A stretch of DNA of 64,000 nucleotides from a bacterium. Its GTDB lineage: Bacteria; SAR324; NAC60-12. The stretch covers positions 768,001 through 832,000 of the forward strand of contig CBDBHR010000030.1 in the NCBI GenBank assembly GCA_965205865.1, in the 5' to 3' direction. Every line of letters starts with the position of its first letter. Position 1 is the first letter of the stretch. The notes beneath the pieces are model-generated. The model did not search any database, had not been told where the DNA came from, and worked only from the letters and a program-made list of their open reading frames with translations. This document shows, one piece after another, positions 19,645 through 40,733 of the stretch. Position numbers and translations under genes: made by a program.

Positions 19645-20421
19645 ATGAAAATGAAAAATACGAATCGAGTCTTGAAAATCATAGCCTTTTTGCTCTCCTT
19701 CGGGCTCATTGCCTGTACAATCTCCATCAAACTACTGCCACCGGATGAAGTCAACCAGATGGGAGCCCAAACATTCAGTGAGATAAAACGGGAGGCTCAC
19801 CGGGAAACAGACACCCGCGAAAACGCCTATGTCCAGTGTGTCGCGAAACGGATTCTAAAGCATTCCGGGGAAAATTCCGCAATCGATCAATGGGAAGTCG
19901 TCCTGTTCCGGGACCCGGCTGTTAACGCCTTTGCGCTCCCGGGAGGAAAAATCGGCATCTACACCGGACTACTGAATATGGTCGCAAATCAGCACCAGTT
20001 GGCGGCGGTGCTCGGGCATGAGGTCGGACACGTCATCCTGGAACACGGTAATTAAAAAATCTCTCAGGACCTCCTGGTTAAAGGAGGGTTGGCGGCTATT
20101 GAGCGCCTTATCAAAGACAAGGACCCGCAGGAAAAAAAGAGATCCTGGCTGGTTTGGGGCTTGGCGCGCAGATCGGTCTCGCGCTTCTTTACAGTCGCCA
20201 TCATGGATTCGAAGCAGACCAGGTTGGACTTGACCTGATGGCAAAAGCAGGATTTGATCCCCGGGAAAACCTTACGTTTTGGGAAAATATGAATCAGAGT
20301 GGCGGTCAGCCACCTGAATTCCTCTCCACTCATCCTTCCGATGAAAATCGAATCAAGGATCTGAAATCGAGAATGACGGACGCCTTGAAGCTTTACGAGC
20401 AAGCGGAAAAAGCGGATTGTG
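19645..20421 (+). pseudogene. M48 metallopeptidase lipoprotein, disrupted
   Basis: VNAFALPGG, HEVGH, then stop/frameshift; YSR..EADQVG, EFLSTHPS. Confidence 0.85.
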
Positions 20422-21835
20422 GCAACGTTCGACTAACACTCGGAGAATGGAGTTTTTGGACCTATGAAGACGGCAGTCGTTACAAAGACCCGGTGCATGT
20501 GTGGAAGTTTCTTGATCGGAACCTGGGAGATCCTGAAGACGACTGTCAACATTCTATTGGTAGTCGGATCGGGAAAATTAATAAATAACCCCGATATCTA
20601 CGTCTTCAGGAAGTCGGACAAGTTCGTAGTAGCGTGAGCAGCCGACAAGGCTGTGGATTTTGGAGAGTGAAAGTCTCTCTGTCGTCAGTTTCCCATTCGG
20701 GCGACTAGCATATCCGGTGCGCTTAGCAGGTAACTGCTTTGCGTTCTGCCCGGAAGTAAAAGTCACCGTCTGCTTTGGACGAGAGTCCATAGTGGGAGCC
20801 AACAGGGTGGCGAGCAAACCTGGAGGCCTGAACATTAGTGAATGATTGCAGCTCCGAAAGAGACTTCCGTCGTGAATTGGCTTGACGGTGTGTTGCCCAA
20901 CCGCCGACCCGCTCGCTACTCGGGGAAGGCCGAAGTTCCAAGGGAAGTAATGGGAACAGGCACCTTGGAGGGAGCCGGAGTATGGATCCAAGCATCCAGG
21001 GAAAGATCCACAGAGATAACGTCGGGAAGGGCCAACTTCCAGCAGGGACTCGCAATAACCTGCAAGGACCTACCGTATAGGGTAACACCGAAATCGGCAG
21101 GAGGATTTTGGTCTGGCGCATGAGTCCGTATGAGCGATGAAGACCGGGTAACGCTGGTCGAGGGGATGCTTGGACATCTCCCTTTTGGAGGTAACACCTC
21201 TAAAAGGCAAAGGGGCTCTCGGTAAATGGCGGGCATTTCATGAACCACTGCCGAACTTGTGTCGGTCAAGAGTGTCACCACAAAGAATGTCGAGCTGGAG
21301 ATCAAATCACTCACTCCAGGGGTGAATGCAGGCGAGTGCTTAAGCTTCGGATTGGGTGGGAAGGGTTTCTGGGGAAACGCTGTTGCTGCCAACCGGACTC
21401 GGGAAATCCGACCGTCCGGGATGAGAGGGGGGGCTTGCGGAAACGTGATGCAGGGTCTGACGCCCTTTTGCCACGAAACCGGAAACGGGGGATACATTGG
21501 AAGTCGTTGACCTAAACATGCGCGCGCCGTATTTCTACCCGGCATGAAGCGGCGAACAATGAGATCATTTGTAGAGAGTAATAATGCAAAGGAAATCAAC
21601 GGAGCCTGTGGAGCAAAGGGACTTGGCTGAGAGGAATTCTGCTTGCCCTCCTGTGTTCGGAACTCAGAGGCCGGTAAAATCAGAGAGCGGTTTAAGCAGG
21701 GTGCGCCAAACGGCAACGTTTGAGCGTCTGACTCGAAGCAGGAGCCGGATGCGTTAGCAGCGCACGTCCGGATCTGTACCGGAGGAATGACGAAAGGTGG
21801 CTGGAAACCACTATAAGTCAGTTCTTTACGGTGAC
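20419..21835 (+). mobile_element. ORF-less group II intron (outer), 5'-truncated, interrupted by a second intron
   Basis: GGAACCTGGGAGATCC (DI end), AAGTCGGA..GTAGTAGCG/ATGAAG (DII-DIII), DV GAGCCGGATGCGTTAGCAGCGCACGTCCGGATCT (21742-21775), 3' end TACGGTGAC. Confidence 0.85.
20635..21543 (+). mobile_element. ORF-less group II intron (inner), 909 nt, complete
   Basis: absent from the second copy of the host intron; DV AACCGGACTCGGGAAATCCGACCGTCCGGGAT (21391-21422); 3' end CTACCCGGC; EBS1 loop TCGCTACT at 20913-20920. Confidence 0.85.
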
Positions 21836-21904
21836 TTTGATTATTTGATTAGGAACGAGTCCAGTTTTTTTGCCCCCTTTTCATTTAATCAAAGGCCTGA
21901 CCCC
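21836..21904. repeat. GGGGTCAGGCC-type REPIN/MITE lacking its first 11 nt
   Basis: matches the reverse complement of 36101-36178 from nt 12 onward. Confidence 0.85.
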
Positions 21905-22164
21905 TTTTTGACCCCCTTTTCAGACCCTTTTTCTGATAGGAGTTTGGCGGTTTTGAAAATATTCTTTCACAGAGAGAACTGACTCTTCAACCTTTTTAAA
22001 GAGTTTAAGAATTTCTGCTTGTTTTTCTTTTTCTTTTTTGATAGTTCTCAACGAAATCGCCTTTGGCTTAAGGTTTTATTTCACCTGGCATACGGCGATA
22101 ATATCGAGAAATTAAGAAAAATGACACTTAAATTTCGCTAATATTTTAGCCGAAAGTCATGCAT

Positions 22165-30926: not shown

Positions 30927-31284
30927 GGGGTAAGGCTTGCAAGTTTGCAAATTTAAGAAAACGTTTTTAGGTTGAGTTCTTTTAACCGCTCTTGGAGATT
31001 TGTGGATTCCTTCAATCTTTCTCTCAACTTATGCGCTCCACGACTGATAGTAGAATCATCTCGCTTGAGAGCATTTGCCACTTCCCGGATTGTTGCAGAT
31101 TTCCAATCGAAGACTGATAAAAGCGACGAGAGTCGCTGTCATCGAAAAAGTATGTTGCCCCCCATTGCCTCGAAGTATCACATGATAAAGCGCACCAGGG
31201 TAGTACAAACGCGGTTTCTGAAACAATTTGGCAAATTGAAAAAGGTTAAAATAAAAAAAAATACCTTATTTTTGCAAACTTGCA
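30927..31284 (-). mobile_element. second copy of the RAYT-derived element; one terminal repeat cut by a group II intron
   Basis: near-identical to 26464-26821; lacks terminal AGCCTGACCCC. Confidence 0.8.
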
Positions 31285-31705
31285 GTCACCGTAAAGAACT
31301 GACTTATAGTGGTTTCCAGCCACCTTTCGTCATTCCTCCGGTACAGATCCGGACGTGCGCTGCTAATGCATCCGGCTCCTGCTTCGAGTCAGACGCTCAA
31401 ACGTTGCCGTTTGGCGCACCCTGCTTAAACCGCTCTCTGATTTTACCGGCCTCTGAGTTCCGAACACAGGAGGGCAAGCAGAATTCCTCTCAGCCAAGTC
31501 CCTTTGCTCCACAGGCTCCGTTGATTTCCTTTGCATTATTACTCTCTACAAATGATCTCATTGTTCGCCGCTTCATCGCTACTACGAACTTGTCCGACTT
31601 CCTGAAGACGTAGATATCGGGGTTATTTATTAATTTTCCCGATCCGACTACCAATAGAATGTTGACAGTCGTCTTCAGGATCTCCCAGGTTCCGATCAAG
31701 AAACT
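31285..31705 (-). mobile_element. ORF-less group II intron, 5'-truncated; uninterrupted copy of the outer intron
   Basis: reverse complement of ~20506-20634 joined to 21544-21835. Confidence 0.9.
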
Positions 31706-32359: not shown

Positions 32360-35300
32360 CTAACCAGCACGGGTGGGGAGCAGTTTTTCGTCCACTGTAT
32401 CCACGCACGCACTCCCATTCGCCGAGTACCAGCCCCAGCAGGTGGGCCGCATTTCGTTGTCGTCCGCGTCGTAGAGGGTCGCCACCACTGTCTCCCCGGC
32501 ACCCAACCCGTCAAAGCTCAGCGAACTCGGAGACGGTTCGTTCCTCGCCACTAGCCCAACCACGTCCATATTGAGCGAACTCGAGAGGGTCGCCTCAGCC
32601 ACCGCGACGGCTGTTACCACGCAGTTCGCGTCCACGGTCGCCTTCGTGGCGTTGTTGGACGTCCATAAAAAGGCATATCCCGGACATCTCCTCGCCCTCG
32701 CTGTCTACGACGCACGCTGAGTAGGCCACGGTGTCTCCCCCCTGCGCCCATTCCTTGTGTCCTCGGCGCTGATCTCCACGCTCAGAGCACTCTGTTACGG
32801 TTCCGATACCGTGAACGCTAAGGATCCCGATCAGTTGTTCGTCGTGTCCGATTCACCCGCAACCGCTTCCACGCAGGCCCCGTAGTAGTACGTGCCAGCC
32901 GTCGACGGCGCGTACAGGTCGATCCCCTCCGAAACCTGGCTCGAAGGGACCAACGCAGAAACTTCGTCGGTGCCGACCTCCGTGTCCGACACGGAGATCG
33001 TTGCGTCCGTCGATCGGTAGTATCGCAACGTCGTGGCATCAGAATTCGCGTCTCCATAGTTTCGAACGGTTGCTGAGAATTGGATGCGAGTTCCAGGACC
33101 AACGCCGCCAAGAGGGGTCCCCGCGATTACCCCAACGATCCTCAAGTCCGGCTGCCCCGTTGACTCCTCCTCCACAGCGATTGTCACTGATGACGAACAG
33201 TTGTTCGTGGTGTCCGACTCGTCCGTCACCGCTTCCACGCAAGCCCCGTAATAGTACGTGCCCGCCGTCGAGGGCGCGGTCAGCAAGATCGACTCGGCGC
33301 TCGTCCCTGAGGCAGCCAATGCCCCCACCACGTCCGTGCCGACCTGGGTGTCCGACGAAGAAATCCTCGAATCGGTCGAACTGTAGTAGCGCAGCGTCGA
33401 CGCCGTAGATTGCTTGTCGCCGGCGTTGCTCACTGTCGCCGACAGCGTGAACGATTCGCCCGTGTTCAAATTGCCGTCGTCCACCGATGCCGACACTACC
33501 AGGTCCGGTTGCGGCTCCGGCACCGTCACCCCCACCGACCGCGAACAGTTGTTTGCCCTATTGGACTCCCCCGCCACAGCGTCCACGCACGCGCCGTAAT
33601 AGTACGTTCCGGGTGCCGTCGGCAAGCGCTCGCTATGCACCTCGGCGAAGCGGCTCGAAACGGCGAGTTGCGGTACCGCGTCGGTGCTCACCTGCGTGTC
33701 GGACGTCGTGATTGTCGCGTCCGTCGACAGGTAGTATCGAACCGTCGTAGTCGCTGACGTTGCATCCCCAACATTAGCCACCCGCTGGTTCAAATGGACG
33801 AGTGCTCCCGGAGACGTTTCGAGAGTAGGGCCGAGTGTGATGGTGAAAGAGTCGACTATCAGGTCGGGCTGGAGCTCCGACTCCGGTTCCGTCAACGTGA
33901 CCTGCACCGATGTCGAGCAGTTGTTAGTCGTGTCGGACTCTTCCGTCACGGCGTCCACGCACGCCCCGTAGAATATATTCCGGGGTTCGACGGTACCGTT
34001 AAAGAAATCGTCGCCCCGTAGCCACCCGAAGGAACAAGCGTATTCACCACGTCCATGCCCACCGCCGTGTCGGAGGTGGTGATCTCTGCGTCCGTCGATC
34101 GGTAGTACCGCACCGTTGTCGCTGAGGACCTCTGAGCGCCCTGGTTGTGCACTGTCACAATTAGCGCAAACGACTCACCCGCGGCCAGACTGCTGTAGCT
34201 CACATTTGGCCCCAGCACAACCAAGTCCGGAGCCTGCTCCGGCGGCAGGGTGCCCTGTTCCGGAGGCGGGGTATCATGCACCGTGACCTGAACCGATGCC
34301 GAGCAGTTGTTGGTCCTGTCTGACTCTCCCGCCACTGTGTCCACACACGCTCCGTAGAAATGCGTTCTCACAGTTGCCGTCACCGAGATTGACTGTTCGC
34401 TATTCCCCGACGCCGACAGTTCACCCACTGCGTCCGTCCCCACTTCCGTGTCCGAGATCGTGATCGTCGCATCCGTCGAGCGGTAATAGCGCAGCGTCGT
34501 CTCCGACGATTTTCCGTCACCCGCGTTGCTCACCGTCGCCGACAAAGTGAAACTCGCTCCCGTTTCCGGAGTCGTGTTGTCCACCGATGGTGACGCTACA
34601 AACAGGTCCGGAGTAGGCGATTTGCCGGATTGTGCGGACTGACCCTCATCATCAAGACCCCAGCATGTCACGGTACCCGTAACGCGGACAGCACAGGTGT
34701 GCTCCCTTCCGGCACTGACCGTGATGAAAATGCCCGCAGGAGGCGTGGACTGACCCACGTCATCGAGACCCCAACATGCCACGGCACCCGTATCGAGAAT
34801 TCCGCAGGTGTGCTTACTTCCGGCACTGACCGTGGTGAAGGTGCCCGCAGGCGGCGTGGACTGACCCACGACATCAAGACCCCAACATGCCACGGCACCC
34901 GTATCGAGAATTCCACAGGTGTGTTCCGCCCCGGCACTGACCATGGTGAAGGTGCCCGCAGGCGGCGTGGACTGACCTTCGTCATCAAGACCCCAACATT
35001 CTACGGCGCCCGTGTCGAGAATTCCACAGGTGTGTTCCGCCCCGGTACTGACCATGGTGAAAGTACCCGCAGGCGGCGTGGACTGACCCTTGTCATTGAG
35101 ACCCCAACATGCCACAGCACACGTGTCGAGAATTCCACAGGTGTGTTCCGCCCCGGCACTGACCATGGTGAAGGTGCCCGCAGGCGGCGTGGACTGACCC
35201 TCGTCATCAAGACCCCAACATTCCACGGCACCCGTGTCGAGAATTCCACAGGTGTGTTCCGCCCCGGCACTGACCATGGTGAAAGTACCCGCAGGCGGCG

Positions 35301-35538
35301 TGGACTGACCCTCATCATCAAGACCCCAGCATGCCACGGCGCCCGTGTCGAGAATAGCGCAGGTGTGATCCGCCCCGGCACTGACCATGGTGAAGGTGCC
35401 CGCAGACGGCTCGACGGAAAGCGCTTCCCCTCCACCATCTTCGTCACCGCCTCCACCGCAGGCTGCCAGGATCAGTGCCACCAAAAAGGTGAGGCATAAC
35501 GAAAACAATTTATTCGGTTTCATTTTTATTAGATGCAT
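32360..35538 (-). pseudogene. surface lipoprotein with RCC1-like repeats and multiple CARDB/Ig-like domains, disrupted
   Basis: lipobox LAAC; VSAGAEHTCGILDTGAVACWG repeats; PDL..TVSNAG..YYYGACVDAVAGESDTTNNCS domains; frameshift near 33975, stop at 32831. Confidence 0.85.
34636..35405 (-). repeat. seven 108-bp coding tandem repeats (36-aa RCC1-like blades)
   Basis: near-identical DNA units encoding AGTFTMVSAG..CWGLDDEGQSTPP. Confidence 0.9.
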
Positions 35539-35622: not shown

Positions 35623-36100
35623 TTGATGAAAAACAAAGGTAGCACAAGATCGGCAAGAACATCAGCAAAAAACATTCATATCAGCCAGGGAGGCAGAGAA
35701 CTGACTGCGCAAGCAGGCTTGATTCCGGTTGTCAAATTTTTTCACAAAGAAGGGATTTTTTCAAAGACAGAGCAGACCATAGACCATCAGCGTGGTGCCA
35801 CGGATCTTTATGACGCGGTGGACATGGTCATTTTGTCGGTGATCGGCATTGTTGGTGGCGCCCGTTCGATTCGTGCGATTGTGACGGTTTGGAACGACTG
35901 TGTTTTGAGTCGTGCGGCCGGATGGCTGAGGATTCCGGATGAAAACGCATTCGGTCGCATACTGCGTACCTTCACAGAGAAAAACATCAATGAAATGGAG
36001 AGCTTGAATCATCGGATTCGAGGCGGCATCTGGCGCAAGGCGCTTCGAAGTGCTAAAAGCAACGTTGGGGTGTTGCCCCGTCTTGTGATTGACGGAAAGT
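35623..36100 (+). pseudogene. IS1380-family transposase N-terminal fragment
   Basis: LTAQAGLIPV, IPDENAFGRILRTF, RLVID; ends at a REPIN. Confidence 0.7.
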
Positions 36101-36178
36101 GGTCAGGCCTTTGATTAAATGAAAAGGGGGCAAAAAAACTGGACTCGTTCCTAATCAAATAATCAAAGGCCTGACCCC
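36101..36178. repeat. GGGGTCAGGCC-type REPIN/MITE
   Basis: GGTCAGGCCTTTGATTA..TAATCAAAGGCCTGACCCC. Confidence 0.85.
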
Positions 36179-38170: not shown

Positions 38171-38516
38171 CAAAAGCGAAACATAAGAAAACAGCGGCTT
38201 GAGTGCGGGGCAATTTCTATTGGGACTTATTCCCTTTCTTCCTATCATTCAGTGCTGCACCAAATGGATCTGAGTCGTGGTATTTCGAACTTGTTATAAA
38301 TCCATGTTTTCAAATCGATGGTGTCGACTTTAATATCACATATCATCGTATATGATTTGTGCTGCATACACATATCGAGGTCAATTTGTTCAGCACTTGA
38401 AAGGTATTTGGTGACAGTGTTAAAGATTACGATGCCTGCGTATTGTTCCGCGGCACACTCGGTTTCTCTTGTCACCGGAGATGGGGTACTTATTCCGTTG
38501 AGTTTTACAATCAGAA

Positions 38517-38598
38517 GGGGGTCAGGCCTTTGATTAAATGAAAAAGGGGGCAAAAAAACTGGACTCGATCCTAATCAAATAATAAAAGGCCTGACCCC
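38517..38598. repeat. GGGGTCAGGCC-type REPIN/MITE, complete
   Basis: GGGGTCAGGCCTTT..AAAGGCCTGACCCC. Confidence 0.85.
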
Positions 38599-39839: not shown

Positions 39840-40733
39840 TTACTCTTGAAGGAGAGCACGCAACCGTTCGACTTCCGCAAGCGCGTTTTCTTTTTCTTGT
39901 CGCTCTTTTTCTTTTTGTTGGCGCTCTTGTTCTTCTCTTTGCAAGGCGTTTTCTTTTTCTTGTCGCTCTTTTTCTTTTTCTTGTCGCTCTTGTTCTTCTC
40001 TTTGCAAGGCGTTTTCTTTTTCTTGTCGCTCTTGTTGGAAGCTTTTCAAGAGGAACGGCTGGTAGAGGGGATCATCGATTAATTTTTCAAAGGCCACCTG
40101 TTTTTCTAAATCCTGAAGACGAAATGCGAATCGATCCAAGACCCGGGAATGAATCACGCCGGGCTCTTTGCTCTTCATCTTTTCATAAACCCCCTGCTCA
40201 TTGAGAGCATAGAAGGCGGTATGCTTGCGCAAACGGTCTAATATAAAATATTCCGCTACCTCCGCTTTGGCGTATTCTTCTTTTTTGTGAACCGTATCCC
40301 GTTCCACCTCCGAGGGAGTCGAGTCGGATAAAAACTCTATACAGAGGTCACACACCCCATCAAACGAACGATCCAACTGTTTGGCCTCGACAGGATTGGA
40401 GTGAAGAATCACGGCCAGATCCGGTTTGCGAATACTCACCTTTTTCTTTCCCAGTTCCAAACGAAAGCCCATTTCCAATGCCATGATTCGCCCTTGAGGG
40501 AAGACGGTTAAATATTCTTCTAATAAGCGCAAGAACCATTGATACAGAGAGATGCTTAAAAAATCTGGCATGGGCTTTTCCTCCAAGAGTCCATTGTTCC
40601 ATTCATATTGACAATCCGGGTGTTCATAGTAGGTCTTCCAATACTCTGCCTCACTCACCCTGAGGGGCTCCCTGGCAGAGGGAGGAAAGCGTGTTGGAGT
40701 TGTGTGTTTTTTGATGGATTCTAAAGAAGCCAT
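39840..40733 (-). CDS. Uma2-family endonuclease-like protein, second copy
   Basis: near-identical to 10497-11348; tail 14 aa longer. Confidence 0.85.
   Translation of the reverse strand: MASLESIKKHTTPTRFPPSAREPLRVSEAEYWKTYYEHPDCQYEWNNGLLEEKPMPDFLSISLYQWFLRLLEEYLTVFPQGRIMALEMGFRLELGKKKVSIRKPDLAVILHSNPVEAKQLDRSFDGVCDLCIEFLSDSTPSEVERDTVHKKEEYAKAEVAEYFILDRLRKHTAFYALNEQGVYEKMKSKEPGVIHSRVLDRFAFRLQDLEKQVAFEKLIDDPLYQPFLLKSFQQERQEKENALQREEQERQEKEKERQEKENALQREEQERQQKEKERQEKENALAEVERLRALLQE

Follow-up and report, generated by a model that had tools for sequence, protein, structure and literature searches.

Group II introns and the U6 small nuclear RNA (snRNA) have an (A/C)GC triad in common, and the role of this triad extends to spliceosomal catalysis. 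Among the bacterial introns, class E and class F (IIE, IIF) were reportedly described by Toro in 2002 and by Simon in 2008. A five-nucleotide loop of domain V (DV), set in a IIB-like frame, is listed among the peculiarities of IIE and IIF introns in an excerpt of Nagy et al. 2013 (PMC3753933). Further traits of the IIE/IIF architecture are an alpha-prime located at the tip of a DId3 stem-loop and an additional bulge in DId3. The triad of group II introns is given as AGC, or as CGC in class IIC (PMC4424553; PMC12350094), and a 2022 census finds DV with the Rfam model RF00029 (PMC8919778). Here we describe an element that differs from this scheme. It lies at positions 20635-21543 of a 64,000-nt stretch (hereafter the window) from a bacterium of the SAR324 lineage NAC60-12 (GenBank assembly GCA_965205865.1, contig CBDBHR010000030.1, positions 768,001 to 832,000 of the forward strand), where it is inserted into another group II intron. 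It is probably an active, non-autonomous group II intron of a widespread lineage with an AAC triad, IIB-like and with a class E/F-like architecture, whose altered core (GGAGC 5' end, AAC triad, CC or CU bulge) departs from that of all described group II introns.

Several described systems resemble this element in part. ORF-less introns (introns without an open reading frame) of the TeI3 type in Thermosynechococcus elongatus are mobilised by intron proteins and prefer insertion into other introns, according to an excerpt of PMC2882425. As far as the excerpt of Mohr, Ghanem and Lambowitz 2010 goes, the apparent likeness lies in mobilisation in trans, retargeting by the exon-binding sites (EBS), insertion into introns and multiple copies; there, 28 closely related copies occur in one genome and no core change is mentioned, whereas the AAC lineage is old, is found in many phyla and has an altered core. 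The nested introns of Methanosarcina acetivorans (Dai and Zimmerly 2003, via PMC4424553) are similar in their repeated, site-specific homing into group II introns. They include both ORF-less introns and introns that encode a reverse transcriptase (RT), and the part of the PMC4424553 summary that covers them reports no altered triad or 5' end. HYER ribozymes (Liu et al. 2024) are likewise protein-less, multicopy derivatives of group II introns. In the excerpted account they are ORF-less members of class IIC, whereas the AAC family has EBS2, EBS3, a long domain VI (DVI) with an unpaired A and intron-like junctions. The traits of IIC introns and HYERs (a short domain I, no EBS2 and insertion after terminator hairpins) do not describe the family, which has EBS2 and EBS3 and occupies varied, sequence-matched sites. 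The circularly permuted ‘T-large’ elements (Roth et al. 2021, PMC8637638) are, in the portion of that article drawn on here, ORF-less, about 900 nt long, present in several phyla and missed by earlier surveys; their DV and DVI have moved to the 5' end and AGC is kept, whereas the AAC family has the normal domain order and AAC.

The closest likeness in architecture is to IIE and IIF introns, with which the family has in common the presence of EBS3, IIB-like exon recognition and the 5-nt DV loop. It differs from them in that the window element has no ORF with a Pfam domain, in a 5' end that is GGAGC or UGAGC and not GUGYG, in AAC with purine-purine oppositions in place of AGC, and in its CC or CU bulge. 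The element looks like a IIE/IIF intron, an assignment resting on one named feature, the 5-nt DV loop. The preliminary description of the locus, made from the sequence alone, had left room for membership in an already described class. Full-text literature searches turned up neither an AAC triad nor an account of an AAC lineage; supplements and several key papers were outside their scope, and a prior description is possible.

The boundaries of the insertion are given by an empty copy of the host in the same window. The 25 nt upstream of 20635 and the 26 nt downstream of 21543 each have exactly one further occurrence in the window, where they are contiguous (31551-31601, minus strand), and a BLAST of the region against the window aligns 20506-20637 and 21544-21836 to 31705-31284 (minus strand) at 99%. 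Therefore 20635-21543 is an insertion of 909 nt, beginning with UGAGC (20635-20639) and ending with GGC (21541-21543), and the empty copy is incompatible with any 1-nt shift of its boundary. A start one base earlier, as GUGAGC, was considered, since a G precedes the insertion in both contexts and the host intron itself begins with GUGCG; it is ruled out by the empty copy, by the EBS1 register common to 28 relatives and by EBS3, which make U20635 the first base. A chance pattern is excluded by four near-identical genomic copies and by full-length homologs in many phyla. None of the ORFs overlapping the insert contains a Pfam domain. Rfam at gathering thresholds gave no match anywhere in the window. 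At E-value thresholds, RF02003 (group-II-D1D4-4) matches 20661-20837 with 33.2 bits (E 1.6e-4; gathering score 49), and RF00029, the model of DV and DVI, matches the window only in the host intron at 21740-21835, outside the insert. When 21300-21560 was searched alone, no intron family was found even at E<=10. The order of the domains is normal, with domain I at 20661-20837 and DV at 21391-21422. The locus comprises the following features, in which IBS denotes an intron-binding site:

20483-20634, plus strand: 5' part of the host intron, a 5'-truncated copy (BLAST to about 40 copies of the 703-nt element)
20620-20624, plus strand: putative IBS2, AAGUU, in the host intron (pairs with GACUU at 20862-20866)
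20629-20634, plus strand: IBS1, GUAGCG, the last six bases of the 5' exon (6/6 complementary to EBS1, as in 24/29 members)
20635-21543, plus strand: inner ORF-less group II intron of the AAC lineage, 909 nt (empty copy, four genomic copies, homologs in many phyla)
20635-20639, plus strand: 5' end UGAGC; family consensus GGAGC, canonical GUGYG (family comparison)
20661-20837, plus strand: domain I segment, Rfam group-II-D1D4-4 (RF02003, 33.2 bits, below the gathering score)
20862-20866, plus strand: putative EBS2, GACUU (the EBS2 loop tracks the exons)
20914-20919, plus strand: EBS1, CGCUAC (EBS1/IBS1 pairing)
20983, plus strand: EBS3, U (Watson-Crick column in 28/29 sequences)
21115-21142, plus strand: mid-intron motif GGCGCAUGAGUCCGUAUGAGCGAUGAAG (conservation among relatives)
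21391-21422, plus strand: DV with AAC, 6-bp lower and 4-bp upper helix, loop GAAAU and CC bulge (hairpin pattern, RNAalifold, pair counts)
21429-21543, plus strand: long DVI with unpaired A21537 and 3' end GGC (RNAalifold, pair counts; the A is invariant in 21 aligned sequences)
21544-21836, plus strand: 3' part of the host intron, with canonical DV/DVI at 21740-21835 and A21544 as IBS3 (RF00029 31 bits, BLAST)
31284-31705, minus strand: empty, 5'-truncated copy of the host intron (BLAST, flank search)

The exon-binding sites agree with these boundaries. EBS1 pairs at 6/6 positions with the end of the 5' exon, and across the family it matches each member's own 5' flank at 6/6 positions in 24 of 29 members, at 5/6 in three and with a one-base register slip in two. 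EBS3 (U20983) pairs with the first base of the 3' exon (A21544), and its column is Watson-Crick to base +1 of the 3' exon in 28/29 members, with all four bases represented. This tracking of the flanks places the intron ends exactly where they had been put in the preliminary description. The EBS2 loop, downstream of a conserved CGAAA, varies with exon positions -7 to -18, and its longest pairing run across the family averages 5.7, compared with 4.4 when exons are swapped. In the window element, EBS2 would pair with IBS2 over 5 bp. A delta-delta' contact of the IIA type beside EBS1 was also tried; it failed across the members compared by eye, and a column scan gave the distant EBS3 column. Judged from these sequences, the AAC lineage uses exon recognition of the IIB type and is retargeted via changed guide loops.

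The core itself is unusual at the base of DV. In the window element and in all parsed relatives, AAC (21391-21393 in the window) occupies the place of the AGC/CGC triad; the 2-nt bulge between the two helices is CC in the window element (21412-21413). The A's of this ‘triad’ have no Watson-Crick partner: one faces an invariant A and the other a G (C in one subgroup, A once), so that they face G/C and A rather than U's. The DV loop is GAAAU or GAAAA in all aligned members. DVI is about 115 nt long, and RNAalifold of 21 sequences gives it a base of GGG/UCC, followed by an unpaired A that lies 7-8 nt from the 3' end and is invariant in 21/21. In the same 21 sequences, 96% of cells in the DV and DVI helices are paired, compared with 28-45% when the 3' partners are slid, and 16 pairs are altered on both sides; values this high occur in 0/500 shuffles. 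Thirteen of the 16 doubly changed pairs fall in DVI helices (helices 3-8). Covariation of this kind indicates that the structure of DV and DVI is under selection. A strongly conserved motif in the middle of the intron (GGCGCAUGAGUCCGUAUGAGCGAUGAAG) resembles the target site in the host intron; its placement in J2/3-DIII is a guess. The AAC triad, the CC bulge and a long DVI (estimated at about 120 nt) with a bulged A had all been read in the preliminary description and are borne out, as are the ends UGAGC and GC, which it had taken from the empty allele and which the empty copy, the 6/6 EBS1 match and the EBS3 pairing confirm.

The relatives of the intron were collected with three pattern scans, each against one genome per species and each returning at least 113-115 stretches. 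The DV pattern, which required AAC and CC, gave at least 114 stretches, from which 80 loci were fetched; in 75/80 the whole intron is matched by nhmmer. Among the matches listed, the hairpins are near-identical (AACCGGAC-UCGG-GAAAU-CCGA-CC-GUCCGG), and their upper helix shows changes of a compensatory kind. By record title, they come from Acidobacteriota, Actinomycetota, Bacillota, Desulfobacterota, Planctomycetota, Myxococcota, Nitrospirota, Chloroflexota, Alpha-, Beta- and Gammaproteobacteria, and others. There are 28 distinct full-length homologs, 54-67% identical to the window intron. Because the DV pattern itself forced AAC and CC, a second sample was drawn by the conserved mid-intron motif, which is independent of DV and of the ends. 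It gave 82 matches in 80 loci, and all 65 with a recognisable DV have AAC; their bulge is CC in most, CU in about nine, AC in one and UC in one. The 17 motif matches without DV are shortened or interrupted, and Rfam found no canonical DV downstream of them. The scan with a 5'-end pattern returned mostly chance matches in GC-rich genes, and in a small check about 19/80 loci were true members by eye and 14/80 matched the intron by nhmmer.

All genome scans together yielded 52 distinct full-length elements of 858-936 nt (median 910). Their 5' pentamer is GGAGC in 44, UGAGC in three, GUAGC in two and a singleton in three, and GUGYG in none. AAC is present in 48/48 parsed DVs of these elements, and the bulge is CC in 42, CU in four, UC in one and AC in one. 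A metagenome scan, with the 3' end written as ...CCCGRC, gave a further 80 fetched matches from the closest subgroup: the penultimate base is A in 80/80, the 27 with a readable 5' end all start with G, and 40/40 parsed copies have AAC. The family ends in AC or AU, and the window copy in GC. The AAC triad, a C(C/U) bulge and a non-GUGYG 5' end are, on this comparison, features of the lineage as a whole. The ORF-less status refers to the Pfam scan, which covered the ORFs overlapping the window element. A search for an RT-encoding member found no long upstream ORF in seven loci where only DV/DVI matched, and these look like 5'-shortened copies. In 40 relatives of the source genome, BLAST with the intron as query gave no match. 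RF00029 detected the element's own DV in 0/20 loci with full members, so pipelines built on it (e.g. PMC8919778) should miss the family; RF02003 matched domain I in 17 of these loci, in two of them above the gathering score. The family also provides a case of the kind named in a caveat of the 2015 review of the field.

A canonical sister lineage, itself resembling class IIE/IIF, has DV AGCCGGAUGCGGGAAAUCYGCACGUCCGGUUY, with the same DV geometry, and a DVI homologous to that of the AAC family (nhmmer E down to 1e-9). In 19/81 matches to this lineage a frame is open for 420-433 codons within 1300 bases upstream, the identity of the protein being putative. The 5-nt DV loop and the long DVI appear from this to be class-wide features. 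These comparisons refine the preliminary description. Its proposal of a distinct lineage in place of random decay is upheld by the AAC counts (65/65, 48/48 and 40/40), by the 0/52 for GUGYG and by the covarying helices, and no close homologs with canonical AGC, AC and GUGYG were seen among those aligned, which keep AAC. Alignment also showed the CC bulge to hold as CC or CU in nearly all relatives. UGAGC, which it had listed with these deviations, is rare in a family with GGAGC, and its 3' GC is not a trait of the lineage, since relatives end in AC in 80/80 and the canonical end is AY. The long DVI is present as it had said but is no deviation, being common to the canonical AGC lineage with reading frames.

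One lone element (L059) has AAC and the CC bulge together with a canonical opposite strand (GUCCGGUUC) and a DVI start of canonical type; it is a possible intermediate, or else a mutated ordinary intron. In four metagenome loci (L492, L508, L549 and L553), family copies start abruptly within their own DV loop (...AAAUCCGACCGUCCGG), as would be expected if another element had inserted there.

In the source genome, four copies of the inner intron occupy the identical host position, with 0 substitutions over 908 nt and, as the sole difference between them, one 1-nt indel within a run of G. The host introns around them differ at 7/702 to 12/588 positions (1-2%), each being closer to some non-host copy, and the hosts also carry different single-nucleotide polymorphisms (SNPs) 28 and 38 nt beyond the junction. 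Identical inserts in differing hosts fit recent independent homing, and not composite copying or long gene-conversion tracts. The earlier argument for mobility from the clean insertion is strengthened accordingly by the inserts that are identical in hosts 1-2% apart. The target site resembles the family's conserved CGUAKGAGCGAUGAAG. An nhmmer search of the genome found only the four copies and a 221-nt 5' fragment, and a regular expression for AAC-type DVs found only the four copies. The fragment (C29:45405) was set aside as evidence on the 5' end: it abuts a transposase paralog, its junction cannot be placed to the base and its flank mismatches EBS1.

A mechanism can be proposed for this spread. 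Target recognition proceeds by EBS1, EBS2 and EBS3 pairing, as the alignments demonstrate for the family, and the unpaired A kept in DVI would allow splicing by branching. The excised intron would reverse splice into DNA and be copied into complementary DNA by an RT/maturase supplied in trans from protein-encoding group II introns of the same cell, by analogy with Thermosynechococcus. Homing in the source genome would be directed to a single site, between CGUAGUAGCG and AUGAAG of the 703-nt host intron. Candidate helpers exist: the source genome has three intact ORFs of 460-461 codons that match the maturase domain GIIM, the one domain covered by the scan, and maturase-domain ORFs are present in 5/5 other genomes carrying family members. 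In RNA libraries, contigs from four runs of two studies cover 20648-21422. The DV stretch 21388-21432 stands at 3-17x the depth of the rest of the intron in runs X15-X18, and the contigs there have flanks unlike those in the window; it therefore seems that RNA libraries from this kind of community contain a further AAC-family member in abundance.

The window copy also has changes of its own. No relative of the closest subgroup shares either its first base (U1) or its penultimate G. In counts over related sequences, the combination of U1 with G occurs in the window copy and in L044 (whose 3' end is inferred), and U1 with A in L084 and L294; G1 with G occurs in 0 of about 49 genome and 27 metagenome relatives (about 76). 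A contact between the first and the penultimate nucleotide is known from model introns, and the distribution is suggestive, no more than that, of a compensatory swap of this contact.

Three other explanations were weighed against an active intron. The insert might be a dead relic whose core and ends are random damage, with copies multiplied by riding along with the host intron. In favour of this, the four copies all share one site in one host family, the U1 and penultimate G are peculiar to the source genome, and the Rfam DV model fails on the element. However, AAC, CC and a 5' end other than GUGYG persist in relatives that are only 54-67% identical and whose helices have changed in a compensatory manner, and composite copying does not fit identical inserts whose 1-2% divergent hosts are each closest to a non-host copy. 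Private decay is thereby largely refuted and retains hardly any credibility. Domestication, into a hydrolytic DNA-cutting ribozyme like the HYERs or into a regulatory RNA that is no longer an intron, is very unlikely too. An ORF-less, multicopy element of about 900 nt does recall the HYERs and the circularly permuted group II ribozymes as portrayed in excerpts of PMC11754743 and PMC8637638. Against this, the unpaired A of DVI is invariant, EBS1-3 are matched to both flanks, the junctions are precise and intron-like at varied sites, the domain order is normal, and no conserved neighbour gene was noticed beside family members, where no systematic neighbour comparison was made.

It is also conceivable, and unlikely rather than far-fetched, that the lineage is real and selected while its ribozyme is not self-sufficient: a crippled AAC core would need an extra helper, such as the canonical DV of the host intron, or the element would be spread by DNA recombination between host introns. 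DV is known to act in trans for model introns. Many members lie within canonical introns or beside them, the DV loop being the site in several cases, and a canonical DV/DVI lies 200 nt downstream of the window element. Among 20 loci checked, canonical domains found by Rfam flank the element in L037, L049, L077 and L086, and in an alignment, sequence resembling domain V strands can be read in the flanks of L047, L051, L065 and L066; the other 12/20 show no canonical intron within 1.3 kb. The dependence on a helper is further opposed by the element's own DV, which is covarying and among its most conserved parts, and by exon-binding sites that track the flanks as in autonomous reverse splicing. 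As for recombination, SNPs 28-38 nt from the junction that differ between hosts speak against long conversion tracts.

Reading the insert as an active intron has difficulties of its own, which weigh against it. In model introns, the G at the centre of the triad is considered critical for catalysis. The window copy's U1 and penultimate G, peculiar to the source genome, might impair it mildly or disable it fully. DNA recombination between host introns could, in principle, also spread identical copies. The co-occurrence with maturases has n=5, and the same search also matches 3/14 control genomes. No RNA-library contig bridges 20634/20635 or 21543/21544, and the joint 20634>21544 is identical to the empty allele present as DNA, so that the RNA contigs are uninformative on splicing.

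An active AAC intron could also be seen on a larger scale. A phylum-spanning, protein-less lineage using AAC, a purine-purine DV base and a GGAGC end may act as a hyperparasite of group II introns that borrows their proteins and has been missed by surveys based on proteins or on DV models; this proposal is tentative and falls a little short of an even bet. If a conserved, mobile AAC lineage is real, the metal-binding core tolerates a different solution. The lineage would offer experimenters a natural set of co-varying changes in the 5' end, the triad, the opposite strand and the bulge. Ribozymes that are compact, protein-less and retargetable also have practical appeal as tools for gene targeting.

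The host is an ORF-less group II intron forming a 703-nt repeat; its GUGCG start lies some 10 nt inside the repeat, and its DV is canonical, with a G opposite A at the middle triad position. BLAST found about 40 whole or broken copies in the source genome; 17 are uninterrupted copies of the 422-nt query stretch, and a similar number span the whole 703-nt repeat. Both host copies in the window are 5'-shortened. A second ORF-less intron of about 870-905 nt, with ends of canonical type and a canonical AGC DV, is inserted 4 nt upstream of the inner-intron site in other host copies (C28:326612-327516, C29:729057-728189 and C30:654282-655123, outside the window). Its ends are damaged in all three copies, two lacking the first two bases and one recombined at the 3' end, and its DV/DVI aligns to that of the inner intron (nhmmer E 6e-5). 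In addition, host base 581 is interrupted by a 1264-nt insert in four copies (e.g. C26:286866-288129) and by a 1346-nt insert in a fifth. The host intron is a landing pad for at least three other elements.

A short palindromic repeat of the TTGATTAGGAACGAG...CATTTAATCAA type follows the 3' end of many host copies, in the window at 21835-21911, 36096-36168 and 38511-38588, and may be the preferred target of the host intron. Directly upstream of the truncated host intron is a gene with an HExxH motif (19645-20588), possibly a metallopeptidase to judge by this motif. It appears split into ORFs at 19645-20055 and 20154-20588, with the stop just past the motif. Elsewhere in the window, tandem repeats are found at 34525-35490 (111-nt period, seven copies) and at 39862-40050 (21-nt period).

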